A stretch of DNA of 60,083 bases, the filler included, from Hausera hauseri (lineage: Eukaryota): the NCBI GenBank assembly GCA_046269625.1. It is 10 parts of 10 records of this genome, joined end to end, with 100 filler letters (N's around TTAATTAATTAA, not from the genome) between each part and the next. Parts side by side here need not be neighbours in the genome. Positions count along the whole stretch, not along the records: positions 1 to 4,253 come from JBJURY010674773.1; positions 4,354 to 8,947 come from JBJURY010513127.1; positions 9,048 to 13,264 come from JBJURY010694549.1; positions 13,365 to 19,211 come from JBJURY010180306.1; positions 19,312 to 30,138 come from JBJURY010149977.1; positions 30,239 to 34,843 come from JBJURY010508240.1; positions 34,944 to 39,340 come from JBJURY010601888.1; positions 39,441 to 45,721 come from JBJURY010117431.1; 2 more parts are not named here. The stretch is one strand, 5' to 3'. Under the pieces are notes generated by a model. It was not told where the DNA came from and made no database searches. It saw only the letters and a program-made list of their open reading frames with translations. The position numbers and the translations under genes are program-made. The stretch's first letter is position 1; every line of letters begins with the position of its first letter. Of the stretch, positions 1,581 to 60,083 are shown piece by piece.

Positions 1581-1796
1581 TATGACATGAATTTCGTTAT
1601 TTTCTCCTTGTAATGTGCCTACTTCTGTTACGTAAGAAGCGTTATCAAGTATTCGATTTGCAAAGATAATTCGCATATAATTTATGTTTATTTTGGTTTC
1701 TTCCGCTATTGCCTGTTTTGTAGCTAGTACGTTCTCGTGAGTAGACATAATTATTTTCATTTCTTTAGTCTTTAGAGTTATTATTTTTAATGGAAG
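1581..1796 (-). pseudogene. Ubiquitin-like (beta-grasp) domain within the element polyprotein
   Basis: LPLKIITLKTKEMKIIMSTHENVLATKQAIAEETKININYMRIIFANRILDN...IHVI aligns without gaps to ubiquitin 1-50 with identities at T7, L8, K11, K27, I30, I36, R42, I44, F45, A46, L50. IHVI matches LHLV. No C-terminal GG is visible. Confidence 0.75.
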
Positions 1797-3531
1797 TATT
1801 AAAGGGAATTTTGTCGGAATGTAGTTCCGTATTGTTTGAACAACATTTTTGGTAATGCATTATATCTATTATTATCAGCTGCCAATATAATTAATTCTGG
1901 TATTTTATCCTTTAATGCTTGTAAATCAAATTTTAGTTCAGAGATTTGATAGATGCTCATCGAAGACTTCAGGCCAAATTTGAGTTAAAGAAATATCAGA
2001 TTTCAATTTTCCGGGTATATATTGCACTTGATATACTAGATCTTGATGAGGTTGTGTTATAACCTCTTCATACTCTTGTAAAGTTTTTCTTTATCTCCTT
2101 CGGTTAAATTTAATTCATCGGCAGTTTGGGCTTCTTCCGAATCATTTAGTTCTTCTAATGGTATGTCATCAATGTCTTGATTTTGATTACTTGTCGCATG
2201 TTCATACCAATCAGCTACTTTTTGGATTTTCTTTTTATCTAATTCTGTAAAGAATGGTTTAAGAGTTGATATCATTTTAAAATGTTTTCAGCTTTGGGTT
2301 TATCGGCTGGTTTAATTCTTCTGTATTTGAGTTTTAACTTTAACTCTTCAATTTTATTTATGATTTTAAGAGTACCTTCTATTTTATCAATAAAACTTTC
2401 TATGGAATTTATTTTAACCCGATCTCTTTCTGAAAACATTTTTAAATTTATTTCATTTTAAAATTTGTTGATATAATTTTTCCTGCGACAAATTAGGAAG
2501 GTTAAGTTGGCTCAATCTTTCAATTCTAAGTTTTAATTCGTTAACCTTTTTTATAGTTGGTTTAGTATATTTATCGATTCCTCCCCTAAATTCAAAGATA
2601 CGTTTTTCATTATCTTTTCGAAAAGGATATTCTGATGTCAGAGCTATTTCATTTTTTTTATGAATCCACTTCTTTTTTTCCTGTCTTGAAAGCTTCATTT
2701 GAGTTTTTTCTCAAGTTGAGTTAAGGTGGAAATCTTTTCCATGTCGACACCTCTAGCTTTTTGTAGCAATTGTGACAAAGTATCTTTTGTCTGAGTAGAA
2801 TCCTCAGTTAAATCTACTGCTTCTACTGATAACTACTTGTGTGATTTTTGAGAGATTGAGGTATCTCTTTTTCTACCTAAAACCTCATCTATTACTTTGT
2901 CATTTTCAGTACATTGTTTACTGTAATGATTTTTGTGTATTTGTTTTAATGTCTATAAAAGATCACCAAATACTGTAGATTGTTTCAACTTTTTTGGATC
3001 ATTTAGATGCCCGGACAAAGTCACTAACCGCATTTCTAGTAAATCCTTTGCATACTCTGGTATTTCTCCGCTTAGTATATTTTTGACATCTTGCTTTATT
3101 TTCTTGGTAACATATTTCTCTTCGTTATTATCTTCAGATATCATTTCTATTGGTTCAGCATATGGTTTTTTCTCCGACTTTCTAGTCACTTTTGGAACCA
3201 CCTGAGTAAGAAACTCCTCAGTTTCAGGTGCCTTTTGTATCGGTGTTCATTGATGAATCGTTAATGGTTAAGTTTATTGTACCTCAGTTTCTAGTTTATT
3301 TAAAACTTTATCGATTGTATTAGCAATTATCAAAGATTTCTCAGAACAATCGCTTGACAAATCATCTAAATCTGGATTAAATTCTTTTTGCTCTTGTTCA
3401 CTTTCCCCCTCATCTTTCTCTAATTAAGCTAGTGAGTTTACATCTATTTCCTCATCAGAGTTTGGTTGTGTAGGTGCATTTTGTTGCATTTGTGAAGATT
3501 CAACTTCAGGTCCTACAGGCATAGCTTTTAA

Positions 3532-4253
3532 CTAATATTCTTCGGCTGATGTTAAAGTTTTACCTTTAGATAATTTGTCTAAAACCCTTTTTCTCGTTTT
3601 AATAATTATTCTATTGGTGACAAATTCGTCCGTATAATCGTTCTCCTCAATCATAGATGATATAGGTCTTTTATACTTTCCTGCTTGGTAGCGTTTAAGC
3701 ATATCATCAACATCAGTGCTTTCTTTAGCAGCTTGACTAAGGAACTGCTCCTTTATTTGTGGAGGTATTCTATCTAATTTAATTTTTACGTCATCTAATG
3801 TTCCATGTAATAATGATAAATGCAACGCCTTTTCTTGTTTTACTGCTGGTAACTGTTCAACTAGGGTCATGCAACTGACCGAAGTATGACCATTTTGGCC
3901 GCATCTTTTGCATATCACTGGAGATCCATTTTTATTTAAGTCCACTCTGCCTTTCTGTTGGTATTAATTGGAATTATTTTTATTCCATGAATTCTTATTA
4001 TTATTATTGTTGTTACTGCAGGGACTTTTATTGGTATTGTTACCTTTGCTTTGTGAAAAGTGGTATTACTTTGAGACTCTCATGCATCGGATTTCGATTG
4101 TGTTGCTTATTGTCATCTTGTGATTATTGTTGTTGAAAATTTTGTTGATTTCCATTATTATTTTGTGAAAATTTTCTACTATTATTATTTTTAGGGTCAC
4201 CTGTAAATGGACCAACATACGCCTCAAGATTTTGGGCCTCTCTTCCTGCCTCT
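3532..4253 (-). pseudogene. gag: Gag C-terminal region with CX2CX4HX4C zinc knuckle
   Basis: CKRCGQNGHTSVSC is a canonical retroelement nucleocapsid knuckle. It follows an N/Q-rich linker and a capsid-end-like helix (EAGREAQNLE). Confidence 0.7.
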
Positions 4254-4353
4254 NNNNNNNNNNNNNNNNNNNNNNNNNNNNNNNNNNNNNNNNNNNNTTA
4301 ATTAATTAANNNNNNNNNNNNNNNNNNNNNNNNNNNNNNNNNNNNNNNNNNNN
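4254..4353. other. Artificial contig linker (same at 8948-9047, 13265-13364, 19212-19311, 30139-30238, 34844-34943, 39341-39440, 45722-45821, 53938-54037)
   Basis: Identical N44-TTAATTAATTAA-N44 blocks with stops in all six frames. Confidence 0.99.
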
Positions 4354-4612
4354 AATTGGTATCTATACCAAAGAACATTACATGTATTTATCGTGAACAT
4401 GGTTTACATTGTGCTTATAAAAAGTGTTTAACATTATGTCAAAGTTATATTGTTGCGAAATAAATGTGTTATGAAATTAGTTGGCCTTATCCTATATAGT
4501 AGTTACTTAGTTTTACTTGGCCTTATCCTATATCCCACATTACTTGATCAAGAAGACAACAGGTTATTTCTATACAACATTTATTAAACAAAGAACAACA
4601 ATATGTACGTAT

Positions 4613-7600
4613 TTACAATGTCACATGTCCGTGAGATAGTGTATCGATTCCATCACCCAGGATCTGCCTCTTGTCATCCATCCCATCTAGGCTTTTCTTC
4701 TGTAGTGTTACTGTACCAATGTTACGATCAGTAGACTAGACCCTTCGCATCTCTGATATGATATGAGTCTGCCCATGTAGAACTCTAACATAGTCATCAA
4801 AGCCAATCTTCTTGGTTAAGGTAGCCCTTTGAACCCCTTTAGCCCGCTTATTTACATGGCCACATATATCAATAGCATACATTTTGAACCTAAGAGCTAC
4901 AAATCTCGAGACAATTGCCCCATTCACCTCGTCTTTGAATTTCCCTAGGACTTTCTTGTTGGCAATAGAATAGTTGGGATGATCCTTTGGATAGTCCGAG
5001 GTATCCATGTGCTGAGCCAATTGGGCAAGGTCCTTATAAATATCATCTGTATGAATCTGGTAGATGAAACTATCAGTATCCGTATATATCAGCTGTATGG
5101 GCTTGAATGTGGGGACCATTATATCGTAATGGAATCTGTACATTAGGGTCTTTGACAGGTAGAGGATTGCCATACCCACATATATGGGCTTATTGAATAC
5201 CAGTGCTGTTTTCAGCATATGGATGCTGATCAAGTTCTCAAAATATATGATGCTGCGTGGAAGTTGGGCTTGGAAATAAGCTTCTTTGCCCGCTTCCACT
5301 CAGAGACAAATTCGATGTTGATCCTGTTGCGGATATTCTCCATGGTCTTGCCAAAGACCGAGTTGTTGTAAAGCTTGAACTTGTCCTTCTCAAAATCGTT
5401 CTTGGCATTAGTCCGCAGCTTCGTATTGAGATCTATGTAGGGCTGCAGCCACATGGACTGACTGAAATGCAGGGCTCTATAGATCTTGGTAATACGAAGT
5501 CCATGTCTAACTGCCTGCTGGAGATTGATGTAGTGAACTAAATACCTTTCCCTATTACCCAGATGACAGAGCAGCTTTCTATGCTTTCCATGAGGCGGAG
5601 GCCTGCTCTTACGGAGGAAAGACAGCTGTTGATGCCTTGCGTGGATGGAAGCCGGATATTCCATATCCACCTCCAGTATGTATCCTGTATCTCCAGTGGG
5701 ATTCAGGTCCAATATAGGGATGTTTTCAGGATTCTCGACTCATTTGAAGTTATCATATGGCAATGGGACGCTCATTGCATATCGATACAAGTTGTTGGCA
5801 TCCAGGTATGATATATATGAGTATTCCTTGGATGAGTCATACTGGGCCATATACTTGTTGTTGGCCTCGCTATACCGGTGAATGACATGACATTCCGCCT
5901 CTAAGGCTCCTCTCGATCATAAGGATCATGTCGAAATCCTTAATGATCTGAAGCCTTATGCCGGTATATCTCTGCATTGCTGCCCAACTCATCCCTGGAG
6001 CCGTAAAGAAATGAGCCGGATCCAATGCATTGCTCTTCATTGCAACATTCCTGAAACTGTCAAAGACATCTGTCAGCAGCAGCACGTCCGTCCTGAGGTA
6101 AATATCACTATATTCCCCTATTGTTCAGCATTGGAATGCATGCCAGACGTTCTGGGCATGCTGGTAGTCAGCATGACTGATATCACAATCAGAGAGGATA
6201 ATAAAAAGTCCTTCTTGTCCGGCAATGAGGTCTCATCCAGTGTTTCACATGACGTTATGTAGTCATAAGGAAACACGCCTCTCCTCTTGACTAGGTCAAA
6301 TGCAGTGGGAAAGAACCGCTTCGTCTCCTTGAGTTCTTCTGCAGGGAGGTTCTTCACTAAACTGTTCAGTGAAGACGACATGAAACGAAAGCTGTCTATG
6401 AAGAGAAGCCTGATTCTTCCAACATGCTTGGTAAATGTGATGTATTTTTCATCACTACTAGGAATCACATCTATATTACCATCAATGTTGCCTAATTCTC
6501 GGATTATGAAATGGGAATCATAGCCACTGAGATTATGGAACACTACAGGCACACGTGCATATTTTGAAGCGAAGATTGCAGTTGTTTCATGCTGCGCCTC
6601 AATATGTACCTGTAAAATGGCAGTGATCCTTGACTTTCCAATTTTCCTTGCTGAAGGACTTGTCGCACAAATAACATGTTGTTGCCTTGCGCCATTCATC
6701 TTGTTTCCACGACATGTTCATTGTATCAATATGCTGTTGAAACATGTTTTCAAGCTTATGAACCATACCTTCAAGTCGTTTCATGAAATGTACTGCTGCG
6801 CCTGCACCCTTGAATAGAAATGGTTCACTGTCCAGTTCTTTGGTATACATGCAATACGATAAGAGTTCATTATATTGGCATGCCGTTGTGCTGCTATGTT
6901 GAGGACTGGGAGTGCAGCTGTGAATTGGCCAAAGAATAGCTTCAAAGTCGCAATAGACGACAAATGGGACCTTGATCTTCTTCTCGAACTCCTTGAATTC
7001 AATATAGTCCTCCTTGGGAAATTCTAGCCTGATACAATAATTGCTGTTGCAGTACATTTTGTGCTCTGAAAGCTTGTCCACAGCTGAATCACCACTGAAA
7101 TGGGAAAAGCATCGTTTACATATTTCTATTCTTTCCTTATGTTTCGTAATTTGGGATCTCACTAGACACTCAAAGTTCTTGATCCAAACATAATGTTTCT
7201 TTTCTCCATAGTCTAGTAGGAGCAGATCTCTATGATCTTCCAATTCAGTATCATATATCTGCAGAGGATAAAATATGTCCTCATCATCCAATCCAATGAT
7301 GTTGATGGATATATTGTTGATTCGCCCGAATATTTTGATTTCATCTATGGATTGCGGGAACTTAATACATTGGAGATCATAGTTGTACTGCATGTCATTA
7401 TATAGCCAAACTCCATCTGCTGCGTGTTTTTGATCCCGTATGAGTTTACATAATGGCATACATGAAACACTTGTTGTCATTATTATGGACATTGACACAT
7501 GCTTTTTATTAGCAATTCAATCAAAGAGCTTAATATATGAACTACCTTGCATGGGAGAGTACTTGTAAACATACACAAGCAATCTCTTGATGGTTGCCAG

Positions 7601-8532
7601 AGTCCACCCATTCTTCTTACTCTGGCTTTCATCGGCTTCACGGATCAGCTTCGCATGCTCTTTATGCAGCCATTCTACTGTATTGGTGGTATCAAAAATA
7701 GGTCTATTTCTGGTCTTAAAGTCACTTTTGGACTCTTCTCCATCAACATTGATGTATGAAACCTCAAGTTTCATGTTAACTTTAAGTGCCTTGATCTCAG
7801 GTATGTTGCCCTAGAGAATCCCTATTGTTTCTTCCTCTGTGTACTCCAGGAACGCCTTGATGGTTGTTTGACCAGCTGCATCAATGACGTATTTGCAAAC
7901 TTTTCTCTTTAATGCTGCAGCATTAACTGACCTCTGTCTTTGGCTTTTTTATGAAGCCGCTACGCCTGATGCGCCTGATGGACCTGATGCGCGTTTTAGT
8001 CCTGCATCTAGGTGTTCTGCTGCATCTAGCTGTGATACTGCTGCAACTGGCTTATGTTCATTAAACATGATCTTCTTTGAATTTGATGTGAAGACAAATG
8101 ATGTTTGTAATCTTCATAAAACTGTATGTATTCTCCATAACATACAGTCTCACATTCTGGGCAGATATAATAGATGGTCCTATTGAATTTGTGCCCATAA
8201 TAGGTCCTCATGGTACTGTGGCAATTCTGAGGGTTGTGTATTGCACATGTGCAATACACATATGAACTGCACCCTCGATTTTCCTTTGGCATGAAAGTCG
8301 TTATTGGCATATTGGTACTGAATATTTGTTTTTTCGACTTTTTGAAGGAAATAAAGTGCTGTTTATGGACATTGTAAAAGTCTTCATAATTGGATTGGCA
8401 CACTACCTCACATGTATGGCATATATAATACTGAACCCTGTTGTACATATGGCTGAAATACTTCTTCATAATATTGGGACAATTTTCAGGCTCATGGATT
8501 TGAGTCAAGCATTCTCTGTATAGTTTGCACAT
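4613..8532 (-). pseudogene. polB: Polinton/Maverick/adintovirus-type protein-primed DNA polymerase B with endonuclease VII-like insert, fragmented by frameshifts and stops
   Basis: Motifs in order: GW.L..I..L.V...YSP.QGSSYI, ExoI VVYCDFEA, CYLC..VKDHCHFTG (EndoVII-like), ExoII FHNLSGYDSHF, FIDSFRFMSSSL, RGVFPYDY, DVLLLTDVF, motif A YLDANNLY, motif B KLYNNSVFGKTMEN, motif C YTDTDS, KGV and terminal DDKR...TLSHGH. Confidence 0.93.

Positions 8533-9047: not shown

Positions 9048-9122
<75 letters not shown>
9048..9122 (+). repeat. (AAT)n microsatellite
   Basis: Perfect AAT run at the contig start. Confidence 0.98.
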
Positions 9123-34843: not shown

Positions 34844-34943
34844 NNNNNNNNNNNNNNNNNNNNNNNNNNNNNNNNNNNNNNNNNNNNTTAATTAATTAAN
34901 NNNNNNNNNNNNNNNNNNNNNNNNNNNNNNNNNNNNNNNNNNN

Positions 34944-41077: not shown

Positions 41078-44000
41078 CTAAATATTAGAAAAATCAAATA
41101 GGTAGACAAATAACACTGACTTATTCAAGACATCTTGTGCTCGACTTAAACTTTCGTTACTTTCATTAATACAGGACAAGGCATTTGAGCGTACATCACG
41201 GGATACTCCCAATAAATTCATATTTTGCTTATGAATGTTTGTGTAAACATCGTCTGAGTAATCATTTGACACATTAAGCGACGAAACGTCGGATGAATTT
41301 AATGAAATATCACTGGGATGTGCTAACGGAGAACTGTTCCACTGTGACTCGAACAACCCCACCTTACAGCCAATGTTTTCAACCATGGAGCACATGTCAT
41401 TTGCGTTACGGCAATAATCATCAACGTTAGAATCAAAACTACCATAGAAAGGATACGAATCCAATATATTAGAGACTTGGCCTTTCAAAAAGAAAATTTG
41501 CTTTCCAATAGCATCAATCCAGAAAGCAGGGCGATTATGAGCTAGATCACAGTTGGGATCAGATAAGTCATTTAGATCAGGATTAAGAAGCTGATGAATT
41601 TCAGATGAAGATAATTCAGCAGATACAAGACAATCGGAAAATATTCCAGGAACGGAACTTCCAATTGCTTTCATGTTCGATTCAATCGACGTAGACGGAT
41701 TCTCAACATTTGAAATGTAAGCATATACATAAAAATAACGCGACAAAACATGTACTACATTATTGATAAGATCACGGGGTAAAACTATTAAATTATCTGA
41801 TTCACCAGAACAGAATGAACAAAGTTTAGAAAACGATTCTAACAAACGAAATTCATCGGATGATTGCAAATCCGAAGGGAACTCAGAACACCTCAACATT
41901 GTCTGCAAAACGGAATCTACAGAATTAACAAATGAACGCAAATCAGACCCCTTTAAAGATACTACATCAAAATCAGCCGGAGAACCATCAGGTTGCTTAT
42001 AAGACGTAAGAATTGAAGAAGAAATGGCCTTAATAAATAACGGTGATAATGGAGGAAAAAGATTAAAAAGATGCGCAAGATTAGACACAACATCTCTCGA
42101 GAAAACAATAGAGTCTTCTCCATTGCAAATGGAACAGTAAATGGAAGATTGAACAAATTGCAATAACCTCAACTGATTTTCAGTAATGTGCTCCTTTTCG
42201 GATTCAGCAGCAGATGAAAAGTGTTTTAACAACTTATCAACACAGTAATTTAAGTGGGAAAAATACAATCCTCTAATACAAATTTCAGGTTCTTCAGAAA
42301 CCATGAGAATATCGCGCAAAATATCATGAATAGGTTTACAGTTTACACATTCGTTTTCTTCCAGAGAAAACGAAATAGATCCCACTAATTCTTGCGACTT
42401 TGCGACATTATCACGATACTGAAATGTACCGCCAATATCCCGATTCAATACGCACTCTGATTCCTTTAACGTTCCCGTAACATTTAATAGTTCTTCTCCG
42501 CCTTTAGCATCCTTTCCACCATTTTCTTTAGCTTCCTTAACAATCATTGCAGCATTCTCAACTGCTTTTCTTTTAGCATTCACTTCATCTTCAACGATGT
42601 CTTCAACAATGTCTCGGTTGGCTTTCAACATCGGATCAACCTGGTCAAATAATTCCGTTTTCTCTAATAATTCAGCTAATTCTGCTACATCACTTCGACT
42701 GAAAGCAACGCTTCTCTCGCCTGTTTCAGTTGCGCCTTGCAAAATCCCTTGAATGGACTCAAGCATTTGTCGCTGCTTTATGGTTTCTGGATCGTTCTCC
42801 GATTTGTCACTTTTCATCAGTTTCTTTTCTAATTTATCAGCAGTCTTACGCAATTTCGACAAATCCTTTCCTTTCACTGTAATCTTTTCATCATCCTTAC
42901 TTTCAAGAACATCTCGTAATATTTCATGAATTGGCTTCTTTCGTTTTGCTTCCTCTGCTTCTCGATATGCTACAATTTTATTACCAAGACCTTCTACTCC
43001 AGATGCACTTTCAACTGCTTCAAACAACGCATTCAATAGGGGTTCACTTACTTTTGGCTCAAGCGTCATCACATCTTCACTTTCTGATAATCCTTTGCCT
43101 AAAATATTTTCGATTACTTCTAATCTTCCTTCATTCACATCATCTTTCAATATTTCCTTCGCAACTCGAATAGCCTCAAAAATATTTTCCACATCTTTCT
43201 TATCTAGTTCTGCATTTTCATCTTTCTTTTCTTCATCGGTTAAACATTTTACAGCTTCTAGGAGTTTTTCACAATTCCAATCAGCTTTCCCCACGTTCGC
43301 ATCTACCTTTTCCGTTAACGCCTCAAGTTTCTCCAATGATCCAATATCCACTTTCACAGCTACGCCCTTTTCCACCTTCGACTTTAAATCTCCAATTATA
43401 TCCTCAACTGCTTTCAAATCTTTCTGATTCAATATGGACTCTGATTCCTTTAACTTTTCCATAACAAGTACTAGTTCTTCTGCGTCTTTAGCATCCATTT
43501 CACCACTTTCTTTCGCTTCCTTAACAATCATTGCAGCTTTCTCAACGGCTTTTCGTTTAGCATTCACTTCATCTTCAACGATGTCTTCAACAATGTCTCG
43601 GTTGGCTTTCAACATCGGATCAACCTGGTCAANNNNNNNNNNNNNNNNNNNNNNNNNNNNNNNNNNNNNNNNNNNNNNNNNNNNNNNNNNNNNNNNNNNN
43701 NNNNNNNNNNNNNNNNNNNNNNNNNNNNNNNNGAACATCTCGTAATATTTCATGAATTGGCTTCTTTCGTTTTGCTTCCTCTGCTTCTCGATATGCTACA
43801 ATTTTATTAACAATATCTTCTACTCCAGATTCTCTTTGCATCTGAGTCTTTATATCGCCAAGTATATTGCCCACTGTTGTCAAATCTTTGTGATGCAATG
43901 TTGAATCTGATTCGTTTTCTTTTAGTTTTATCTCACTTTTGTCTGTGGGCTTATTGTGTCTTTCTTTGTTATATTCAGTTTTTTTATCATTCGCGTGCAT

Positions 44001-45600
44001 TTTTGTTATTGTTTGTTTTATGTTTGCGCTTTCGTTTTTCGTTTTGCTTGTTCTTTTTTCTGTCACATCATCTTCTTCTTGCGATGTTTCTAATATCTGA
44101 TGTTTTCTTTGTCGTGTGTAATCTTTCATGTTCTTTTGGTTTGTTTCAGACTGTTTCTTACTTTCGATTTCTAAATGTGTTGAAATAGAATTTTTATGTT
44201 TTTCATGCTCAGCTTCATCCCCATCCTCAACATAATTGTCTGAATTCATTTCGCGGGAACTCGAATATTCGGGAACATTGCTAATGATTTCGTAGCAGTC
44301 TGTTATTGAATTATTTCTGTTAGTTTCACTTCGTTCATAATCATTTGTTGTTTCCATCTCGTCTAACATGTCGGTTTTTAATTCTTCTGTGTAATGAGGA
44401 GCACTCATTCTTTTATCTGTAAGATGTCTATCAAATATATCATTATCTGTGTAGCTAATATCTGTGTAGCTAATATCTGTTGTTCCAATAATCGTAAAAT
44501 TATCTGAAGTATTTCTATAATGTACATCGTTAATTTCGAAAGGTTCAATTTGAATGAGATCACTGTACTCTAAATTATCATCATCATCCGTGTCTTCAAT
44601 TTCTTCATCTTCCTCTATAGTTTGAAGAAGTTCATTAATGCATCTTACTTCATTTTCATCACACATAATTTTGTTTGAATTGGTCTTGATTTCATTGAGT
44701 ATATCTATTAGATTCGATATTTTAGTTTTGTCTTTGTGCCCATCTAATCCCTTCTGTATTATGGCGCCCAATGTTCCGACTAATTTCTCATTGTCTTCGA
44801 TAAAGCCGTTATCACTTATCAAATAATGCACGATTTCAACATCTTCGTAGAATGGATCTGGAACTGCTTTACTTTCGTTAATGTGTCGTTTTATTGTCGT
44901 GCTCACCTTCAGAATTTCAAGAGCTCTCAACACGGATTTAGCTTCTTCGGCCTTCAGTTTCAAAACAATTTCATTTTCTGAATATTCTTTTGATTCGATC
45001 GCGTCATTTAAAATTTCGTAAGCAACATTGATCTCGCCGATTTCCGATTCGCTTAATAAATTATGTTCGTCATATTCAGAAAATCTATCTGTAAATACAT
45101 GTATGACCTTTTCAATATCTTGAACCAATTGCTGATTTATCTTAACTACTTTATCGGGATCAGAATCCGAACTGACAGTAATTTCGAGTTTTTTCATTGT
45201 TTTTTTAATAGAATCAATTAAATCGGCTTCTGTTAACGTCTTCCCGCCGATAGCTATGTATACTTCGTCAGACAGCTCAATTTCTTCTTCGTCATCACTA
45301 TCGGATGTTTGTTCTCCAAAATAGAGCATTATTTTTTTCATTAATACATCTTTATCAAAATTTGATATATCAAGCATACTTTCAACACGTTTACCAGGAA
45401 AGTTTACTTCTTTAAACTTTTTCAAGCTTTTCTGTATAAATTCTGGTTTGTCTTTTGAACTCCGGTTGGCGTCAATTAAGAAATCAGCAAGAGATGAAGC
45501 CTTGCGTTTTAAAACGTTCTCAATTTCACATGAGTATCTGTTAAGTCTACCAGCTACAAAGAAAGACTTGTTAAAATGAGATATATCCTTTGTGCAAAAG
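41078..45600 (-). CDS. Very large acidic, helical protein with long internal repeats; spans an assembly gap; function unknown
   Basis: Open frames on both sides of the 43633-43732 gap. Identical blocks IVAYREAEEAKRKKPIHEILRDV and DQVDPMLKANRDIVEDIVEDEVNAKRKAVE recur, the latter with ~984-nt period. Start site uncertain. Confidence 0.75.
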
Positions 45601-45821
45601 TTAAGACAGTAATTAAAACCAAGTGAAAAAAGAACAAATACATAATAAACATTTCATATCTCATAAACATATAATTAAAACATTTGACGATATTGATAAT
45701 CTTTTAAATAAAGCATTAAATNNNNNNNNNNNNNNNNNNNNNNNNNNNNNNNNNNNNNNNNNNNNTTAATTAATTAANNNNNNNNNNNNNNNNNNNNNNN
45801 NNNNNNNNNNNNNNNNNNNNN

Positions 45822-48800
45822 AACGGAATTTTTGGCGCAGAATTGGTTTCAGTATTCCCATCTCCCAGAACAGAGCCCCATGAACAGGGGAATTTTTGAC
45901 TCAGAATTGGTTTCACTCCTCCCGTTCCCTAGAACAAAGACGCATCAAAAAGGAATTTTTGGCGCAAAATTCGTTTCACTGTTCCCAGCACCTAGAGAAA
46001 AAGCCCAAGAACAAAGTCCACCCACTGTATCAATGGAATTTGGGCGCAGATGGATTTGACTATTCCCAGTCCCTAGAAAAAAGACTCAGAAAAATGGAAT
46101 TTTTGGCGCAGAATTAATTTCCCTATTCCCACCACCTAGAATAAAGATTCAACAACAAAGGAATTTTTGGCGCCGAATGGGTTTCAGTATTCCTATGCCT
46201 CAGAAAACAGCCCAAAGAACAACGGAATTTTTGGCGCAGAATTGGTTTCACTATTGCCACCACGTAGAATAAAGCTTCAACAACAAAGGAATTTTTGTCA
46301 CAGAATGGGTTTCACTATTCACACACCCTAGAAGAAAGCCTCAATAAAAGAGACCACCCATATAGAACAAATTAATTTCTGGCGCTGAAAGGATTTCACT
46401 ATTCCCATGCTTAGAATAAAGTCCCAAGAACAAAGCCCACCCACTGGAACAAAGGAGTTTGGGCGCAGAATGGATTTGACTATTACCAGTCCCTACTACA
46501 AAGACCCAGAACAAAGGAATTTTTGGCGCAGAATTGGTTTCAATATTCCCACCACATAGAATAAAGCTTCAGCAACAAAGGAATTTTTGTCGCAGTATGG
46601 GTTTCACTATTCCCACCCCCTAGAACAAAGCCTCAAGTACAAAGGAATTTTCGGCGCAGAAAGGGTTTCAGTATTCCCATCCCCCAGGAGAGAGCGCCAA
46701 GAATAACGGAATTTTTGACGCACAATTGGTTTCCCTATTCCGACCACGTATAATAAAGCTACAACAACAAATGTATTTTTGGCGCAGAATGAATTTCACT
46801 ATTCACAGCCCTTAGAACAAAGCCCCAAAATCAAAGGAAATTTTAGCGCAGAATGAGTTTCACTATTCCCAGTGGGTAGAACAAAGACCCAGAACGAAGG
46901 AAATTTTCGCGCACAATGGGTTTCAGTATTCAGATCCACCAGAACAGAGCCCCAAGAACAACGGAATTTTTGGCGCAGAATGGGATTCCCTATTCACATC
47001 TCCTAGAGGAAGGCCTGAAGAAAAAGGACCACCCACCTAGAACAAATTAATTTCTGGCGCAGAATGAGTTTCACTATTCCCACCCCTTAGAACAAAGCCT
47101 CAATAACAAAGGAATTTTTGGAACAGAATTGGTTTCACTATTCCCAGTCCCTAGAACAAAGACCCAGAACAAAGGAATTTTTGGAGCAGAATGAGTTTCA
47201 CTATTCCCACCCCCTAGAACAAGCCCCGAGAACAAAGGAATTTTCGGCGCAGAATGGGTTTCGGTATTCCCATGCCCCAGAAGAGAGCCCCAAGAACAAC
47301 GGAATTTTTGGCGCAGAATTGGTTTCAGTATTCCCATCTCCCAGAACAGAGCCCCATGAACAGGGGAATTTTTGGCTCAGAATTGGTTTCACTCCTCCCG
47401 TTTCCTAGAACAAAGACGCATCAAAAAGGAACTTTTGGCGCAAAATTTGTTTCACTGTTCCAAGCACCTAGAGAAAAAGCCCAAGAACAAAGCCCACCCA
47501 CTGAAAGAAAGGAATTTGGGCGCAGAATGCATTTGAGTATTCCCAGTCCCTAGAAAAAAGAATCAGAAGAATGGAATTTTTGGCGCAGAATTGGTTTCAC
47601 TATTCCCACCCCAAAGAACAAAGCCCCAAGAACAAAGGAATTTTTGGCGCACAATAAGTTTCAGTATTCAGATCCACCAGAACAGGGCCCCAAGAACAAC
47701 GGAATTTTTAAAGCAGAATGGGATTCCCTATTCACATACCCTAGAACAAAGCCTCAATATAAAAGTCCCCATACCTTAAACAAATTAATTTCTGGCGCAG
47801 AATGAGTTTCACTATTCCCACCCCTTAGAACAAAGTCCGAAGTACAAAGCCCACGAACTGGAACAAAGGAATTTGGGCGCAGAACGGATTTGACTATTCC
47901 CAGTCCCTAGAAAAAAGATTCAGGAGAATGGAATTTTTGGCGCAGAATTTCTTTCACTATTCCCACCACCTAGAATAAAGCTTCAGCAACAAAGAAATAT
48001 TGGCGCAGAATGAGTTTCACTATTACCAGCCCCTAGAACAAAGACCCAGAACAAAGGAATTTTTGGCGCAAAATTGGTTTCACTGTTCCCAGCCCCTAGA
48101 ACAAAACCCCATGAACAAAGCCCACCCACTGGTACATAGTAATTTCGGCGCGGAATGGATTTTAGCATTCCCACTCCCTAAAAAAATTCTCAAAAGAAGG
48201 GAATTTTTGGTGCAGAATTGGTTTCACTATTTCCACCACCTAGAACAAAGCTTCAACAACGAAGGAAATTTTGGCGCAGAATTGGTTTTACTATTCACAT
48301 CCCCTAGAAGAAAGCCTAAAGAAAAAAGACCACCCACATAGAACAAATTAATTTCTGGCCCAGAATGGCTTTCACTATTCCCATAGCCTAGAAAAGAACC
48401 TCAAGAACAAAGGAATTTTCGGCGCAGAATGGGTTTCACTATTCCCACCACGCAGAATAAAGCTTCAACAACAAAGGAATTTTTGGCACAGAATGAGTTT
48501 CACTATTCCCACCACGCAGAATAAAGCTTCAACAACAAAGAAATTTTTGGCGCAGACTGGGTTTCACTATTCCCACCCCCTAGAACAAAGCCTCAAGAAC
48601 AAAGAAATTTTCGGCGCAGAATGGGATTCCCTATGCACATTCCCTAGAAGAATGCCTCAAGAAAAAAGACTACCCACATAGAACAAAGGAATTTTTGGCG
48701 CAGAATGAATTTTTCTATTCCCGCCCCCTAGAAAAAAGCCTCAAGAACAAAGGAAATTTTGGGGCATAATGGATTTCACTATTCCCACTCCCTAGAAAAA

Positions 48801-51683
48801 CCTCAGAAGAAGGGAATTTTTGGCGCAGAATTGGTTTCACTATTTCCACCACATAGAACAAAGCATCAACAACAAAGGAATTTTTGTCGCAGAATGGGTT
48901 TCACTATTCACACCTCGTAGAAGTAAGCCTCAAGAAAATGTCCACCCAACTAGGACAAGGGCCCAAGAGCAAAGCCCACACACTGGTACAAAGGAATTTT
49001 GGAGCAGAATGGATTTCACTATTCCCACTCCCTAGAAAAAAATACTCAGAAAGAAATAATTTTTGGCGCATAATTGGTTTCACTATTCCCATCCCCCAGA
49101 AAAAGCCCCGGAACAGAGGAATTTTTGGCGCCGAATGGCTTTCATTATTCACACCCCCTAGAACAAAGCCCCAAGGATAAAGGCCACCCAACTAGAACAA
49201 AGGAATTTTTGGCGCAGAATTGGTTTCACTATTCCCACCCCTAGAACATTTGTCCAAGAACAAAGCCCACCAACTGGACTAAAAAAATTTTGGAGCAGAA
49301 TGGATTTCACTATTCCCACCCCCTAGAACAAAGGCCCGAGAACAAAGACCACACACTGGAACATAGGAATTTAGAAGCAGAATGGATTTCACTATTCCCA
49401 ATACCTAGAACAAATACCCAGATCAAAGGAATTTTTGGCGCAAAATTGGTTTCACTATGCACACCCTCTAGAACAAAAGCCCAATAACAAGGCCCTCCAA
49501 CTGAAACAAAGGAATTTTGGAGCAAATTTTTTTCACTATTCCCACTCCATAGAATAAAGCCGAAGAACAAAGGAAGGTTTGGCGCAGAATGGGATTCACT
49601 ATTCACGCCCCCTAGAACAAAGCGCCAAGGATAAATTCCACCCAACTAGAACAAAGGAATTTTTGCCGCAGAATGGGATTCATTATTCACACGCCCTAGA
49701 AGAAAGCTTCAAGACAAAAGACCACCCACCTAGAACAATGGAATTTTTGGCGCAGAATGGCTTTCAATATTCCCACCGCCTAAAACAAAGGCCCAAAAAC
49801 AAAGCCCACCCACGGGAACAAAGGAATTTTAGAGCAGAATGGATTTCGTTATTCCCAGTCCCTAGAACAAAGACCCAGATAAGAGCAATTTTTGGCGCAA
49901 AATTGGTTTCACTATTCCCACCACGTAGAACAAAGCCCAAAGAACAAAGGATCTTTTGGCGCAGAATGGGTTTCACTATTCCCATCCCCCAGAAATAAAC
50001 CCCAAGAAGAAAGGAATTTTTGGCCCAGAATGAGTTTCACTCTTCACACCTCCTAGATTAAAGCCCCAAGAGCAAAGAAATTTTTGGCGCAGAATGGGTT
50101 TCAGTATTCCCACTCCCTAGAACAAAGACCAAAAGAAAGGAATTTTTGCCGCAGAATGGGTTTCAGTGTTCCCATCTCCTAGAACGAATACCCAGGGCAA
50201 AGTAATTTTTCGGGCACAGTGGGTTTCACTACTCCCACTCCCCAAAACAAAGACCCAGAACAGAGGAATTTTTGGAGCAGAATGAGTTTCACTATTCCCC
50301 ACCCCGCCCTCCCTAGAAATGCCCCAAGAACAAAGGAATTTTGGCGCAGAATAGATTTCACTATTCCCACCCCCTAGTACAAAGGAATTTTTTGTGCAGA
50401 ATGGGTTTCACTATTCCCACCACTTAGAACATGGATTCAACAACAAAGGAATTTTTGCCGCAGAATGAGTTTCACTATTCCCACCCACTAGAAAAATCCC
50501 CAAGAACAAAGGAATTTATTGCGCAGAATGGGCTTCACTATTCCCATCCCCAAGAACAAAGATACAAGAACAAAGGAATTTTTGGCCCAGAATGGGTTTC
50601 AGTATTCTCACCCCCTAGAAAAAAGCCCCAAGAACAAAGGAATTTTTTGCGCAGAATGGGCTTCACTATTCTCATCCCCCAGAACAAAGCTGCAAGAACG
50701 AAGGAAGTTTTGGCGCAGAATGGGTTTCATTATTCCCTTGCTCTAGAACAAAGCCGCAAGAACAAAGACCATCCCCCTAGAACAAAGCAAATTTTTGGGC
50801 AGAATGGGATTCACTATTCCCTCCCCCTAGAACAAAGACCCAGAACAAAGGAAGTTTTGACGCAGAATGGCTTTCACTATTAGCACCGCACGATCAAACA
50901 CCGAATACAAAGAAATTTTTGGCGCAGAATTGGGTTCACTATTCCACCCCATAGAACAAGGCACCTGAGCAAAGGAATATTTGGCGCCGAGTAAGTTTTA
51001 CTATTCCCACCTCCTAGAACAAATACTCAAAACAAAGAAATTTTTGGAGTAGAATTGGCTTCATTTTTCCCACTCCCTAAAACAAAGTCCCAAGAAAAAG
51101 GTATTTTTGGCGCAGAATGGATTTCAAAATTCCCACGCCCTAGAACAATCATACAGTACAAAGGAATTTTTGGCGCAGAATGGGTTTCAGTATTCCCTTC
51201 CTCTAGAACATAGCCGCAAGAACAAAGACCACACCCCTAGAACAAATAATTTTTTGGGCAGAATGGCTTTCACTATTCCCGCTTCCTAGAACAAAGATCA
51301 AACAAAAAAGGAATTTTTGGCGCAGAATGAGTTTCAGTATTCCCATATCCCAGAAGAAAGCCCTAAGAACAAAGTAATTTTTGGCGCAGAATGGGATTCA
51401 CTATTCCCACTCGCTAGAAAAAAGACAGAGAACAAAGGAATATTTGGCGTAAAATTGGTTTCCTTATCCTCATTCCCTAAAAAAAAGGCCGAAGAACATA
51501 ACCCACCCACTGGAACAAAGGAATTTTGGCGCAGAATGAATTTCACGATTCCCACTCCCTAGAAAAAAGACTCAGAACGAAGGAATTTTTGGCACAGAAT
51601 GGGTTTCACTATTCCCGCCCCCTAGAAAAAAGCCCCAAGAACAAAGGAATTTTTGGCGCAGAATTGGTTTCACTATTCCCACT
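45822..51683. repeat. Complex tandem satellite, ~63-64-bp monomer with ~80-bp variants
   Basis: Consensus approx. AACAAAGGAATTTTTGGCGCAGAATGGGTTTCACTATTCCCACCCCCTAGAACAAAGCCCCAAG repeated for ~5.9 kb from the contig edge. Confidence 0.97.
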
Positions 51684-51693
51684 ATTATTATAT

Positions 51694-52755
51694 ATGGATT
51701 TGAGAAATTACAAATTTGTAATGGCTGATCAAGAAGTCCTGTTATGGACAAAATCAGGCACATTAAATTTTATGCGAAATATCAACAAAGTTGATGAAAA
51801 AGAGATATCAATCTATGCGGGCAAATTCGAGGGCCATGCCTTTGGCTCCTCATCCAAAATCATAAAGAATTCAGGCCAAAAAAGGCTTCGGAAACATAAG
51901 CGATTTAAAATGTCCCAATCGTCTTATTTACAAAAACAGATACATTATTTTCAATCAGAAGAATCCATTCAAAAGAATCATGAATTATTAACCGTTCTAG
52001 ATAACTTACAGATTGCCAAACTGATAGACGAATATGAGCAACTTATTAACGTTAAGTCTGACCATCTAAATGTTGTGGTACCAAGATGGATTAATTGTCA
52101 ACATTCATATTGGCTTGAGTTTGGTGAAAAGGCTTATGTAAAGATTTCCGAACACTTCGAAAAAGCATGGCTAACTCTAGAAAATTTGGTATTAGAGTGC
52201 AATGACATTGAAAACATATTAAGTGATGATGAATTGAATTACACAAATTTTGAAATGGACCAGTTAGAATTTAAAGGGTTAGAAATGGCATCTGTGTCTA
52301 TATTTCAGCATATTTCTGAAACTAAAACACAACTTAATGACGAGAAAATATGTGAAAAAAGTATATCAGATCTCGAAGGTGCTGATCAGTTAAATTTATT
52401 GACCGTTCCAAAACTCATTCGCCGAGATACGTTTGCTTCATTTGGAGATATCAGTTCTTTGGATGGTTGTGATTTAAACGAAATTATAGCTAAATTGAAA
52501 AACACTCAAAGCTCAAATTTAATACAGAAATGGAAATCCACTGATGCTTTTACGTTTGAAGTTAGAGGCAAAAATGTATCGAATACGAACGACTTTGATT
52601 TGTTACCCAGGTCCGAGTTTCATCAAGGATCAGAGAGTTGGCTACAAATCCTAGATAAATTCTCGAAGAAAATTGATGACGGAACTGTGCCACCGTTTGC
52701 AGAGAAAGATAATACGTACGCCGAAAAACATTTAATCATTCCAGGGACGTTGAAG
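51694..52755 (+). CDS. Exon of an unknown protein (~354 codons)
   Basis: Long stop-free frame in AT-rich DNA with protein-like composition, ending at a plausible donor (AAG|GTATTT, 52756). No recognisable domain. Confidence 0.55.
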
Positions 52756-54980: not shown

Positions 54981-55259
54981 ACCTCATGATCAACTTGGTT
55001 AAATGAGGTCTTCAATTGAAATCGATTGTGACAATTTGCATGGATATCATTGTGTGACATTTGACTTACACCTCAACGGACACTAATTCCTAACGTAGCA
55101 TTTGGAGCTTTGTTTGATTGTTGCGACTTCGTTGTATAAGAAGCTGAAAACAATTTGTTTTGGTGATGCAGAGGAATTGCTGGAGGTTCGTTTCTGTTTT
55201 CCAAAGACTGAATTTTTTTGTTCTGATTAGTTGAGGCATTTGAGATATAAAGAATAATA

Positions 55260-58200
55260 TGTATCGACTCAGATGTCCATATTTCAGTGATGGCGGAGAA
55301 ATCTGGATGTTTAAGTTTCAACTTTCCGGGGCAAATCGGACCCGAACTAGGTACCCGACGCGGCGGCAACGGAGTCCCGGCCGTGCCCAACCAAATGGTC
55401 CAAAGAGCACCGGCCGCTGTGGGCACCACATCAGCCCCGGTGGCAAAGTAAAAACTATAAAGGGTAAAAGAGACAGAGAAAAAATCGCAAAACGAAAAAG
55501 TATCTGTGTCAGTCGGTCTTAGTGTGACCAAGACGTTGGGTGCCTTCTAGTGATTTTTCCCTGCTATATTTGCTAAATGTGACTCTGCGTGTTTTGTCTT
55601 TGTACGTTGTGTTTGTTTGCAGAGTTTGAAGTGGAGGAAAAATTGTCGGATTTTGTTGCAAGTGTTATGTCGTGCAAAGATGAGTCGGAATAAAGAAAAG
55701 AAGAAGGTGAATGAGGAAGAGAGATTGCTGACGACGAAGGAATGATTAAAGGTGTAGTGGCGGATAAAGGAAGAGAGAAAGTAGTTGGAGTAGAAGTTGG
55801 AATTGGATTGTGTGAGAAAGTGAAAGTGGAAGATGAAACAGAAGTAGTAGAGAGAGGAAGAGAAATAGGGATAGAGGTAAAGAGAGGAGGAAGTTGCAAA
55901 GCCGAAATGAAAGTGGTAAAAGATGGTGTGTGAGGAGAGAGGGGGGAAGAAAGTTCCGAAGATGAGGAAGGTGTCGAAGGCGAATGAGAGAGATAGAGAA
56001 AAAAAACGTCGAAGAGGTACAAGGCGAAATAGAGGAAGAAGATAGAGAAGGCAAAGAAAAGTAGTTGGAGCGTAGTATGCAAGAGGTTGGAATGATGAAA
56101 GGTGTAGATGGAAAGATTGGTGAAGTCTTAGTGGTGTTTGATGGAGGAAGTATTGTAAGAGGAGAGAGCAGGTTGTTACCAGGGGATGGAGGAGGTGTTG
56201 AAAGGCTTGAAGGTGCAAAATAGGATGGGGAGAAAAGGCTTAATTGTGCAAAGAAATTGAAGTGGAATTTTGGAAGAGAACGTAGGGAAAAATGGATTAT
56301 GAAATTGAGCAGAGATGGAAAGTGAATTGTTGGATTGCTGCGCGTCGTGTAAAGATGTTGGTGGAGAAGTAGCTTCGATGGGAGACGTACCGTCGATGAA
56401 AAAAGCCGGCTTAGCGTTGTTAATGTGAACTGTTACTTCTTTGTTGTCTTTGAGAATGATGATGTTGTGAGAGTGTAAGCGAATTACTTTGTAAGGGCCG
56501 AAATACTGGGGTTGAAAACCACACGGCGTCTGATTCTTTAGTTAAACAAACTTGGCAGTATATAAATCGTCGGGCATGTAGGGTTTATTTGCGTGTAACA
56601 ATCTGCAAAATGAGTCTTTGCTGATCTTAACGAAGTGTCTCTGTGCCGCTTGTATAGTTTCGTCTGTAGGAGTGTTGTCCAATCAGTCAGCTCGAATAGT
56701 GATCTGACGGAAGTTCCACATAATGCTTCTGCAGGTGAACATCCTGTATAAGTAGATGGTGTCTTCCGCTAGCCAAGAAGAATACGCGGAAGGAGTGTAG
56801 TCCAACTGTCATTAGACTCAGCGAGGATTTTGAAAGACGTTTTCATTGTTCGGTGGAAACGTTCCAGAAAACCATTCAGTTGGGGATGATATGGTGACGT
56901 ATGAATGTGGTTAATTCCTAATCGATTGACAAGAGCTTTAAACAGGTTAGATTCGAACTGTGAACCTTTGTCCGAAATGATGTGGCAAGGTGATCCAAAC
57001 CTGCTGATCCAAGTGCGGATGAGAACGTCTGCGATTGTTTCTGTGTTCGTGCTCCGAAACGGGACAACCTATGGCCATCGCAAGGAACGGTCCATCATAG
57101 TAAGGATGAACTGATGGCCGTTGTCTAAGGATAATTGGCCTAAATGTCAATGTGAACAAATTTGAAACGAGACGTGTAGGGGAAATGAAATAGTGGTGGC
57201 TTTAGGTGCTTAGTAACTTTGTATTTTTGGCATGCCACACACTGCCTAACCCATGCCTGCACGTCAGAGTGCATCGACGGTCATACTAATTGGCGATGTA
57301 AGAGGCGAAAAGTGGTCTTGGCACCAGGATGATGCAACGAATGTACGCTGTGGAACGCTTTCTTTTGAAACGATTCAGAAAGAATGATTTTTGGATTATT
57401 AGGTTTGGAGGTGTCAAAGGCCACACCGTCGATGGTTTTGCAAGATTTAAAAGATTTAAGGATGACAGAAGGTGGCTGGTTTTGTTGAAGCTTGGTTTGA
57501 GGAAAATTGGTGTAAAATCAATCGAGCTGACCGATCTGGACAAAAAGTCAGCTATTAAATTGTCGACTTCGTTTAAATGTTTAATTTGAAAATTAGATGT
57601 TGACAAATACAATATTTGCCTTTCCTGACGTGGAGAAGGCGATTTCATGGTGAGAATTTGAAGCAAGGGCTTGTGGTCCGTTTGTATGGTAAAAGTTCAT
57701 GCAGTTAGGAGATGTTTGAAGTGTTTTACGGCAAGGACCATTGCAAAGAACTCGCGGTCAAAAGTGGAATACTGTTGTTCTTGTGCTGTGAATTTTCGAG
57801 AGAAGAACTCTAATGGCTCATGAGATCCATTTTTGACTTGATGGAGGACAGCACCTGCAGCTGTTATGGGTGCATCCGTGGTTAAGAAGAGTTCTGCATG
57901 GGAGTTTAAATAGGCCAGGATTTCAACCGTTTTTAAATTTTCTTTGAGACGATAGAAAGCATTGATTAAAGTGACGGTGCATTGAACAGGCTGTTTCTTC
58001 TTGCCAGAGTTTAGTGATGCAAATGGAGCGGTTAGAGTGGAACCGTGCGGAACGTACTTATGAATAAAGTGCAAAGTTCCAAGGAAAGAACGCATCTCTG
58101 TAGATGTTCGTGGTAGTTGTATGTTTTTTAGCTGAGTGATGCGATCCGGCTGAGGTGAATGTCCAGAGGAGCTAATAACATGTCCTAGAAAATTGACCTT

Positions 58201-58577
58201 ATGTTGAAAAAATGTGCATTTGGAGAAGTTAATTTGTAAATTGTTTTGGTGCAAGCGCTGGAAGATTAAACGTAAGTGTGCAGAGTGTTGCTTGGTGGAA
58301 GGTGAGGCAATTAAGATGTCATCAATATAGGGATAGGCGAAGTCAAAGCCTTATAGGACTGTGTCGATATGCCTTTGGAAAGTCTAATAAGCGCTGCGGT
58401 GTCCAAAATGCATGAAGAGATACTCGAAAAGGCCAAAAGGTGTAATGACAGCCGTTTTGGGGATGTCTGCTGGTGACACCGGAATTTGGTGGTATGCTTT
58501 ATGTAGATCAATGCAGGAGAAGACTGTTGCACCATGGAGCGTGTGAAGGATATTGTTGACTAATGGTAGAGGGTAGG
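55260..58577 (-). mobile_element. Decayed Ty3/Gypsy LTR retrotransposon (RT, RNase H, integrase, GPY/F, low-complexity tail, ~171-bp 3' LTR at 55260-55430)
   Basis: YPLP, IDLHKAYHQIP, KTAVITPFGLFEY, YIDDILIAS, LTTDA..AGAVLHQ, YSTFDRE, TDHKPL, YHPQLNGFLERFHRT, FGPYKV. Candidate LTR TGTGGTGCCCAC...GATACA. Confidence 0.92.
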
Positions 58578-59449
58578 TGTAAGGTTGCACCTTACAAAAA
58601 ATAAAATAAATAAAATCAGTAAAATTAATTAAATAACCACAAAAATTCAAGACAGAAACAAATAGCAAAATCAAAAAATAAACAAATCACGAATTCGCCC
58701 AAAAATATAAATAACAAAAGTCTGGATTTAAACCAATTTTTGTTTAAATCCACAGATTAGCAGAAGAGTTGAACAGTTCAAAAAGGGGAAATCCACAACT
58801 CTACCAAATCCGCATCGTTGACATCGTCGCCGTCAGTCGCAGACGCCACCGCAACATCATCGTCATTTCCGAGAACAAATTGAATGGACGATCTACCGAC
58901 ATTGCTCAATCTATTCGATGATCGAGGGATATTGATCATTGACGATGGAAATTACTAAAATTATAACGAGCCCATCATTCATCAATCCGTGATGGACCTT
59001 GTCCACCCGCTCGACTACATCACGTAGTCTCCTTACAACTGACGAAAGCTCATCAGAATTCCCATCTTCTCTATCAGGAATCAAATACCAATTCGATAGA
59101 ATGGATGCAGATATAACGCAGATAATCTACTGATTACTTTCTTTAATATTCTGATCATATTTATTTAGCCTTTCTGCAGATGGCCAGACGCGACGTACAG
59201 ACGAAACAACCTCAACCAAATACCACATGGCGTCGAGGACGTCTCCGCCAACTACTTACACGGTGTCGAGTCCAACTCCACCTACACACGACGTCGAGAT
59301 TACTCCGTCAACCCATGTTTATTAAAAACAAACCTTCTTACCTGAAGTTGTTGTTTTCCCGCGTTTTCACTAGTTGTTTTATCGACTGCATTAGAGTACT
59401 TGTATTGTGCGGCCTATACAAGGCTTTTGCCCAATAAAAAACTTCTAAA
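58578..59449 (+). mobile_element. Candidate 5' LTR (~870 bp) of a younger LTR element inserted into the RT of the older Gypsy
   Basis: The older RT breaks exactly where TGTAAGG starts (58578). AATAAA at ~59433; the segment ends immediately before a tRNA primer-binding site. The expected terminal CA is not intact. Confidence 0.6.
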
Positions 59450-59450
59450 A

Positions 59451-59461
59451 TGGTGGCAGCG
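59451..59461 (+). promoter_or_regulatory. Primer-binding site complementary to the tRNA-Leu 3' end
   Basis: TGGTGGCAGCG is the reverse complement of ...CGCTGCCACCA-3', a common Gypsy PBS. It lies between the candidate LTR and the gag ORF. Confidence 0.75.
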
Positions 59462-59620
59462 AATACCGCACTCACGTCCCTTTCGGACAGAACCGTGGAA
59501 ATTAATCCGGTAAAAACCATTAATAGTGCCGTCGAAAACAATCCGACCACAAATACCCAATTCACTATATGTGATAACACGGGACCCGTTAACCACACGG
59601 TTATCAATCCGAAAATCACA

Positions 59621-60083
59621 ATGAGTGATTCTGAACAAGTTCTAAGATATACTAGCACTCACACACACGATGATAACGTCAACTTGGTGCACAAATCCGA
59701 TAAAGCAACTACCCCGCCAGAAATCCATTTTCTTGTGCGCGGCCTACACAACACGAAAGCTCATCGCTTCCCCTCGACTCTAACTATGTCAGGAATGCTG
59801 GAAGTTTTAGACCTACAGTATCCTGAACATACATTTTCCTATAATGGAAAATTATTACGCAAGAATAATTGCGTAATCAACACAATTCTGGTAGATAATA
59901 CCATCATACTAGCGACTCCCAAACTAAAAGGAGGCGTCGACAACCTTACGCCTGACAAAAAAGCAGAAACTGCTTCAGCAACACAGGCTAAACCACCCAA
60001 ATTACAATGTCCAACCTTTTTCATAGGTTCGGACGGAACGCCATTGAAGTGGTTCCATGTGTTTGAAACATGGGCTACTCAAT
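59621..60083 (+). CDS. gag: Gag ORF (5' part, runs off window) with N-terminal ubiquitin-like domain ending in LKGG
   Basis: Absent from the ORF track because it has no stop in the window. Translation: MSDSEQ...PPEIHFLVRGLHNTKAHRFPSTLTMSGMLEVLDLQYPEHTFSYNGKLLRKNNCVINTILVDNTIILATPKLKGG-VDNL...KPPKLQCPTFFIGSDGTPLKWFHVFETWATQ. The last part fits the P.F.G....W...FE start of Gypsy capsid domains. Confidence 0.75.
   Translation, partial: MSDSEQVLRYTSTHTHDDNVNLVHKSDKATTPPEIHFLVRGLHNTKAHRFPSTLTMSGMLEVLDLQYPEHTFSYNGKLLRKNNCVINTILVDNTIILATPKLKGGVDNLTPDKKAETASATQAKPPKLQCPTFFIGSDGTPLKWFHVFETWATQ

Follow-up and report, generated by a model that had tools for sequence, protein, structure and literature searches.

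Ubiquitin-like domains in two apparently separate LTR-retroelement families of a Hausera hauseri assembly, one of them a proposed host-deubiquitinase cut site in Gag

Introduction

The stretch of DNA considered here (the window, 60,083 nucleotides of the Hausera hauseri assembly GCA_046269625.1) consists of ten unlinked contigs joined by spacers, with GC contents of 31-42%, and its host genes and decayed transposons, as read in a Pfam scan, are typical of an invertebrate animal. Two of these contigs carry pieces of long terminal repeat (LTR) retroelements with a ubiquitin-like domain (UBL): contig 10, whose element is read on the plus strand and whose probable domain of this kind, UBL-A, precedes the capsid in Gag, and contig 1, read on the minus strand, where the domain UBL-B precedes an envelope (env) region. 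On balance, the evidence favours two unrelated, multi-copy LTR-retroelement families that acquired their UBLs independently, with UBL-A as a candidate cut site of a host deubiquitinase.

A first-pass annotation of the window had rightly stated that the pieces are not physically linked, lying as they do on two of the ten separate contigs, and had offered two explanations for them: a single family of large enveloped elements that carry two UBLs each, or repeated independent capture of such domains. The second is supported by the different Gag types and the unrelated UBLs, and the idea of one lineage with both UBLs can be abandoned.

Two families in one sample

The separation of the two families is best seen in their Gag proteins. 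A search of 1.84 billion protein representatives with the Gag of contig 10 returned two matches, P0001 (E 2e-48) and P0002; the latter is spurious, an AHNAK protein whose match comes from 21 stretches of repeats, and was discarded. None of ten window peptides is present in the protein collection. P0001 is a whole Gag, comprising leader, UBL-A, KLKGG, linker, capsid and two CX2HX9CX3C (CHCC) fingers, just past the second of which it ends, and it holds no CCHC knuckle. The finger type of the contig 10 family is read from this protein, the window copy being cut before it. The contig 1 stretch 3963-3535 holds one CCHC knuckle and no CHCC finger. As the fingers of P0001 and contig 1 differ, the Gag of contig 10 and the CCHC Gag of contig 1 cannot be one and the same, and the two pieces are not the complementary parts of one architecture that they had been taken for. 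Moreover, no DNA or protein similarity was found between contig 1 and contig 10, and the dissimilarity of the two UBLs remarked at first pass was borne out by hhalign (probability 0.1%), with no homology beyond the shared fold. From these sequence comparisons, contigs 1 and 10 very probably represent two separate families.

That one family of large enveloped elements bears both UBLs is very improbable. The occurrence of both contigs in one sequencing run and the lack of overlap between the pieces would agree with it, but the CHCC Gag of P0001 faces the CCHC Gag of contig 1, P0001 stops after its second finger where contig 1 continues for about 1,050 codons past its knuckle, and the depths of the two contigs in that run are very different. 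In fact, P0001 contradicts a single family unless the window copy diverges downstream of a capsid start that is 97% identical to it.

Contigs of this public sequencing run, X1, cover contig 1 and contig 10 alike, so that both pieces come from one sample. The earlier worry about different organisms is thereby weakened but keeps some force, as X1 may be mixed-species and may be the source sample itself; among the runs listed as containing contig 1 there is no RNA run. The summed X1 depth, a crude measure that gives no copy number, is 29-390 over contig 1 against 3,606-52,486 over 58482-60083, a gap of one to three orders of magnitude. Neither UBL is a one-off insertion, as the counter-case would have it: X1 contigs cover both UBLs to the same degree as the sequence beside them, and P0001 keeps UBL-A. 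The features of both elements are collected in Table 1.

Table 1. Features of the two retroelement pieces, in window positions.
Feature	Contig	Position	Strand	Remarks
Decayed gypsy pol (reverse transcriptase-RNase H-integrase)	10	56400..58577	-	UBL-A element interrupts the reverse transcriptase at 58577
Probable 5' LTR, ~870 nt	10	58578..59449	+	Starts TGTAAGG; AATAAA near end
Gag leader, T/N-rich, ~86 residues	10	59450..59707	+	Length differs between the two copies
Primer-binding-site-like TGGTGGCAGCG	10	59451..59461	+	11-mer; probably tRNA-Leu type; overlapped by ATG 59450
UBL-A, probable divergent ubiquitin-fold domain	10	59708..59935	+	Ends ATPKLKGG; KLKGG at 59921-59935
18-residue linker and capsid start	10	59936..60083	+	Cut by contig end
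CCHC zinc knuckle, CX2CX4HX4C	1	3871..3912	-	After N/Q-rich stretch; sole Gag marker on contig 1
Charged K/E-rich coding-like sequence, ~670 codons (~2 kb)	1	1860..3870	-	Interrupted by stops and frame changes
UBL-B, ubiquitin-family domain without C-terminal GG	1	1581..1808	-	Integral, Rad23/Dsk2-like; Pfam PF00240
Spacer from UBL-B to hydrophobic helix, ~250 codons	1	821..1580	-	Place of the BCL2-like domain in Burro
Hydrophobic helix, probably a signal or anchor of env	1	764..820	-	Mean Kyte-Doolittle 1.87 over 19 residues
Start of gB/chuvirus-type (class III) env ectodomain	1	1..716	-	Frame broken near 342-430; runs off contig

The 5' end of the contig 10 element

Contig 10 most plausibly holds the 5' end of one retroelement nested within another gypsy element, whose interrupted reverse transcriptase (RT) begins its RVT_1 match only at profile position 59. 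Of the succession LTR, primer-binding site (PBS), UBL, GG and capsid start given in the first-pass annotation, the PBS, the KLKGG and the capsid start (30/31 residues identical to P0001) stand firmly, the evidence for UBL-A is indirect, and the LTR is inferred, as no second LTR copy lies within the window. The probable LTR has no Pfam match in six frames, and this copy shows no canonical CA end. At 59451, the PBS-like 11-mer is found once in the real sequence and in 0/100 shuffles; extended to a 12-mer, it is filed as Leu in three and as Thr in one of four rows of supplement 1 of PMC13524379.

The Gag frame most likely starts, judging from the two sequences, at the ATG at 59450, which is kept in P0001, and not at 59621, as first annotated, since that ATG is not kept. 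A peptide upstream of the Gag ATG is also common to P0001 and contig 10, and the P0001 frame stays open further upstream, through the LTR. This ATG shares bases with the beginning of the PBS (59450-59461), and no leader separates the PBS from Gag.

Does UBL-A have a ubiquitin fold?

Several weak lines of evidence suggest that UBL-A is a divergent ubiquitin fold. The UBL-A of P0001 has sub-threshold matches to ThiS (E 0.01; 16.8 bits, cut-off 22.5) and Sde2_N_Ubi (E 0.067; 14.1 bits, cut-off 26.4). In the Atlas, which compares language-model features, UBL-A finds at rank 4 a cluster that is 100% PF00240 (0.90), together with three further ubiquitin- or SUMO-like clusters at 0.87-0.89. When the pattern of buried and exposed residues is anchored on the GG, that of UBL-A is reached by 3/300 and 0/300 shuffles and by 3/361 and 0/361 windows of real open reading frames (ORFs), UBL-B and viral ubiquitin serving as positive controls. 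Finally, the motif [KR]L[KR]GG, a conservative image of the RLRGG of ubiquitin, occurs once in the 120,162 six-frame codons of the window, in the KLKGG of UBL-A, and this basic-L-basic-GG C-terminus is kept in 2/2 copies of the domain.

A number of results weigh against this reading. The window UBL-A has no Pfam, NCBIfam or PHROGs match, neither copy has a ubiquitin-clan Pfam match above cut-off, and no PDB match to the ubiquitin family was obtained, even when the two sequences were used as a profile. Its alignment to ubiquitin is not significant, 894/2000 shuffles scoring as well, and its score against a profile of 96 viral ubiquitins is equalled by 396/1000 shuffles. The top three Atlas clusters are unnamed (74-79 residues), the named one shares 148/256 features where same-family matches typically share 170, and Atlas figures are uncalibrated for protein parts. 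The pattern test is post hoc, having been devised after the sequence had been seen. With regard to conservation, UBL-A (45/76 residues identical between P0001 and the window, 59%) is barely better kept than the leader (49/90) and far below the capsid start (30/31, 97%), in a comparison of two copies only.

These same results are what a small matrix-like or orphan domain would give, in which KLKGG had arisen by chance and UBL-B alone were a real UBL: no significant match to ubiquitin, best Atlas matches without a name and moderate conservation. Such a domain is nevertheless rather unlikely, given that ThiS, Sde2, the Atlas ubiquitin clusters and the pattern test, each a weak line, all agree, and that KLKGG is unique in the window and stands at the right distance. 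From sequence, then, UBL-A is quite likely to be a true ubiquitin fold.

The single-sequence AlphaFold model of UBL-A is uninformative (pLDDT 38), the 154-residue window query gave no usable Atlas match, and nothing usable came from scanning metagenome, viral and prokaryote contigs, where a 25-residue match (L122) was dismissed. A PDB match to the E1 protein BilD (E 0.016-0.17) falls in the linker and capsid start, outside UBL-A, and is regarded as a chance match. In X1, a single contig lacks 59710-59926, nearly all of UBL-A, with 21 letters on its short side and a depth of 12.7, which is a weak hint of a variant lacking the UBL and was given no weight.

A possible deubiquitinase site in Gag

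The proposed workings of the contig 10 Gag are as follows. It would be synthesised as leader-UBL-GG-capsid-nucleocapsid, a host ubiquitin-specific protease would cleave after the GG of UBL-A, as in SDE2, and the removal of leader and UBL-A would leave a capsid-first Gag for which the protease of the element itself would not be needed. The released leader-UBL-GG might act as a decoy or modifier. Given the ubiquitin fold of UBL-A, and by analogy with the systems compared below, a cut at the GG has somewhat better than an even chance. Both copies of UBL-A end in the same eight residues and identity falls immediately after the GG, a pattern that would fit a protease recognising the residues before its cut.

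UBL-A may also be a true ubiquitin fold that remains attached, as a module for solubility, localisation or proteasome binding, the GG being a relic of the captured gene. This is unlikely, if less so than the lack of a ubiquitin fold. It draws on the use of uncut domains, which UBL-B and the planarian element Burro show to be possible, and on two features of the alignment to ubiquitin, namely polar beta-2 positions and an alpha1-beta3 loop that is 4-5 residues short, which may hinder recognition by a protease. For a relic, by contrast, it is unexpected that the last eight residues should be invariant in a domain that has drifted to 59% identity, with the next residues free to vary.

The closest cellular parallel is SDE2, in which the GG, L70 and R73 are required for cleavage and conservation is centred on the motif (PMC13572447). 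It likewise consists of a divergent ubiquitin fold with a conserved terminal xxKGG, fused before the working protein; SDE2 is a cellular gene with demonstrated cleavage, whereas UBL-A belongs to a retroelement Gag with an N-terminal leader and its cleavage is predicted. Host hydrolases cut at the ubiquitin insertions of bovine viral diarrhoea virus (BVDV). The cytopathic forms of this virus carry, as does the contig 10 Gag, a captured ubiquitin or ubiquitin-like unit at a protein junction of a viral polyprotein, but their insertions are recent and near-exact host copies in an RNA virus, whereas UBL-A is old, diverged and fixed in its family (PMC13517609).

With regard to the retroelements themselves, the CX2HX9CX3C finger is the signature of CsRn1 (PMC2582038), and P0001 shares it with the CsRn1 clade (CsRn1, PwRn1, AgCR), its capsid also having a weak DUF7041 match (22.9 bits, below the cut-off of 28). 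It departs from that clade in its duplicated finger, while contig 10 differs in its Leu-like PBS, as against the tRNA-Trp PBS of CsRn1 elements, and in the leader and UBL-GG that precede the capsid; PMC2582038 is silent on ubiquitin. The more ambitious statement, that a very abundant CHCC-type gypsy family fixed a ubiquitin fold before its capsid and has its Gag matured by host deubiquitinases and not by its own protease, is put forward tentatively, its chances falling short of even.

If UBL-A is cut at its GG, a retrotransposon would leave a step of Gag processing to the host ubiquitin machinery, a pestivirus- or SDE2-like device that was not found described for an LTR element in titles and abstract beginnings. 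In the same material, which extended neither to subscription papers nor to Repbase Reports, no literature was found on a GG-terminated UBL before a retrotransposon capsid. Moreover, if UBL-A does serve Gag maturation, then, counting the Burro-like UBL family that accompanies it in this sample, the retroelements of this host would have recruited the ubiquitin system twice.

Contig 1: a UBL between Gag and env

The contig 1 pieces announced at first pass are largely upheld. The knuckle at 3912-3871 fits its motif exactly and matches Pfam zf-CCHC with 16.6 bits (below the cut-off of 20.8), UBL-B matches PF00240 (ubiquitin) with 27.4 bits (cut-off 25.4; E 2.9e-6), and the env matches Monjiviricetes_fusion (PF24664) with 37.2 bits (cut-off 27); only this copy has the stop at 3532 that had been taken for a "Gag end". 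The score of UBL-B against viral ubiquitin was reached by 0/2000 shuffles, and there is a weak rad23 match (E 5e-4), while nine of twelve weak PDB matches are chains of ubiquitin, Rad23 or Dsk2/ubiquilin. Its end carries no GG, and UBL-B is therefore read as an integral domain. The single-sequence AlphaFold model is one long helix (pTM 0.34) and uninformative, and homologue searches among longer proteins yielded no relatives, either for UBL-B or for the env piece 430-2, which is weak evidence.

The family of contig 1 is multi-copy, although this copy has decayed: 895 X1 contigs align to it, 693 of them less than 95% alike, and all 30 bins are covered, the UBL included. At the stops 3532-3534, 1578-1580 and 1171-1173 all X1 depth reads a different letter, so these three are decay private to this copy. 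Being copy-specific, they fit one long polyprotein in the contig 1 family; further breaks remain beside them, and the frame between env and Gag is broken in this copy. No excess of third-position changes is seen (10/40 listed variable places, of 728 on contig 1), these being mostly changes of this copy itself.

The product of the contig 1 family would be one long polyprotein, Gag-UBL-Env, and pol would lie downstream of it, the arrangement of the planarian Burro and the GAG-ENV-POL errantiviruses. UBL-B would stay uncut and, to judge from domains of the Rad23/Dsk2 type, may work as an interaction domain, for example with the proteasome or ubiquitin receptors. No pol domain was found in any frame between knuckle and env.

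The literature already describes a domain of ubiquitin/SUMO-like type that lies between Gag and an in-frame env. The polyprotein of planarian Burro/GYPSM1 comprises Gag CCHC knuckles, accessory domains, a Ubi2/SUMO-like and a BCL2-like domain, an in-frame env with mononegavirus fusion matches, and then pol (Arkhipova and Yushenova, PMC6431247). Contig 1 agrees with it in the CCHC, the long accessory region, the UBL, the fusion-type env and the absence of pol between them. It differs in extent, knuckle to env spanning about 1,050 codons within a 4.25-kb fragment, in the score of UBL-B with PF00240 where the Burro domain scores with PF11976, and in having no detected MATH, BIR, ankyrin or BCL2 domain, some of which HHpred had found in Burro. 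As Pfam and PDB gave no match to any of the four on contig 1 (three frames, read with X), which is one of the points to be set against our interpretation, we call contig 1 Burro-like in layout only, and not a Burro. A BH1-like "GxPSWxKxV", spotted by eye near 1200, had no support from the Pfam and PDB searches. This seemingly more compact Burro-type layout suggests that the UBL-before-env module is not confined to giant elements.

Elements of GAG-ENV-POL order with a gB-type env are described from flatworms, bryozoans and nematodes (Chary and Hayashi, PMC13524379). As in the Platyhelminthes C1a group of these errantiviruses, env directly follows the Gag region on contig 1, and, by eye and with few rows of other groups compared, this env shares its motifs and the spacing of its cysteines with six Smed (Schmidtea) C1a rows. 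A flatworm is a plausible host. Ubiquitin is never mentioned in the text and seven supplements of that work.

A second objection is that no LTR, capsid or pol is in view on the 4,253 nt of contig 1. It could then be a pol-less element or a BEL/Pao (Anakin-like) carrier of a chuvirus-type glycoprotein, and not a gypsy Gag-Env-Pol element; Pao elements do bear this type of env, often defective (PMC7642597), and the motif CGMHS is present in one mosquito BEL row. We consider this improbable, because the env tracks the Smed C1a rows along its length, by eye, GM[RK]F is found (as GMRF) only in four Smed rows of the PMC13524379 table, and the position of the UBL agrees with Burro.

Other features of the window

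A single-exon ORF with a MATH/TRAF domain (30281-30781, plus strand; Pfam E 8.6e-17) may represent either a TRAF-like gene of the host or an accessory ORF of the Burro type. Two decayed gypsy pol copies on the minus strand, 34944-37500 and 55250-58577, are related, with 64-74% DNA identity, and by their RT motifs may be CsRn1/Kabuki-like.

Furthermore, a Polinton/Maverick-like remnant (4736-8532, minus strand) combines decayed pieces of a protein-primed DNA polymerase B (PF03175) with an endonuclease-VII-like tail, and the N-terminus of a Mariner/SETMAR-like transposase was recognised by eye at 40210-40581 (minus strand). Long acidic coiled-coil ORFs at 41078-45653 (minus strand), whose internal repeats recur at distances of about 826 and 984 nt, span a scaffold gap and match no Pfam family above cut-off. 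A KMT2/Trithorax-like host gene (21484-28524, plus strand) encodes PHD, extended PHD and FYRN domains in long ORFs. Finally, a tandem array of about 6 kb (45822-51700) is built of at least 82 copies of 63-64 nt units with a higher-order structure.

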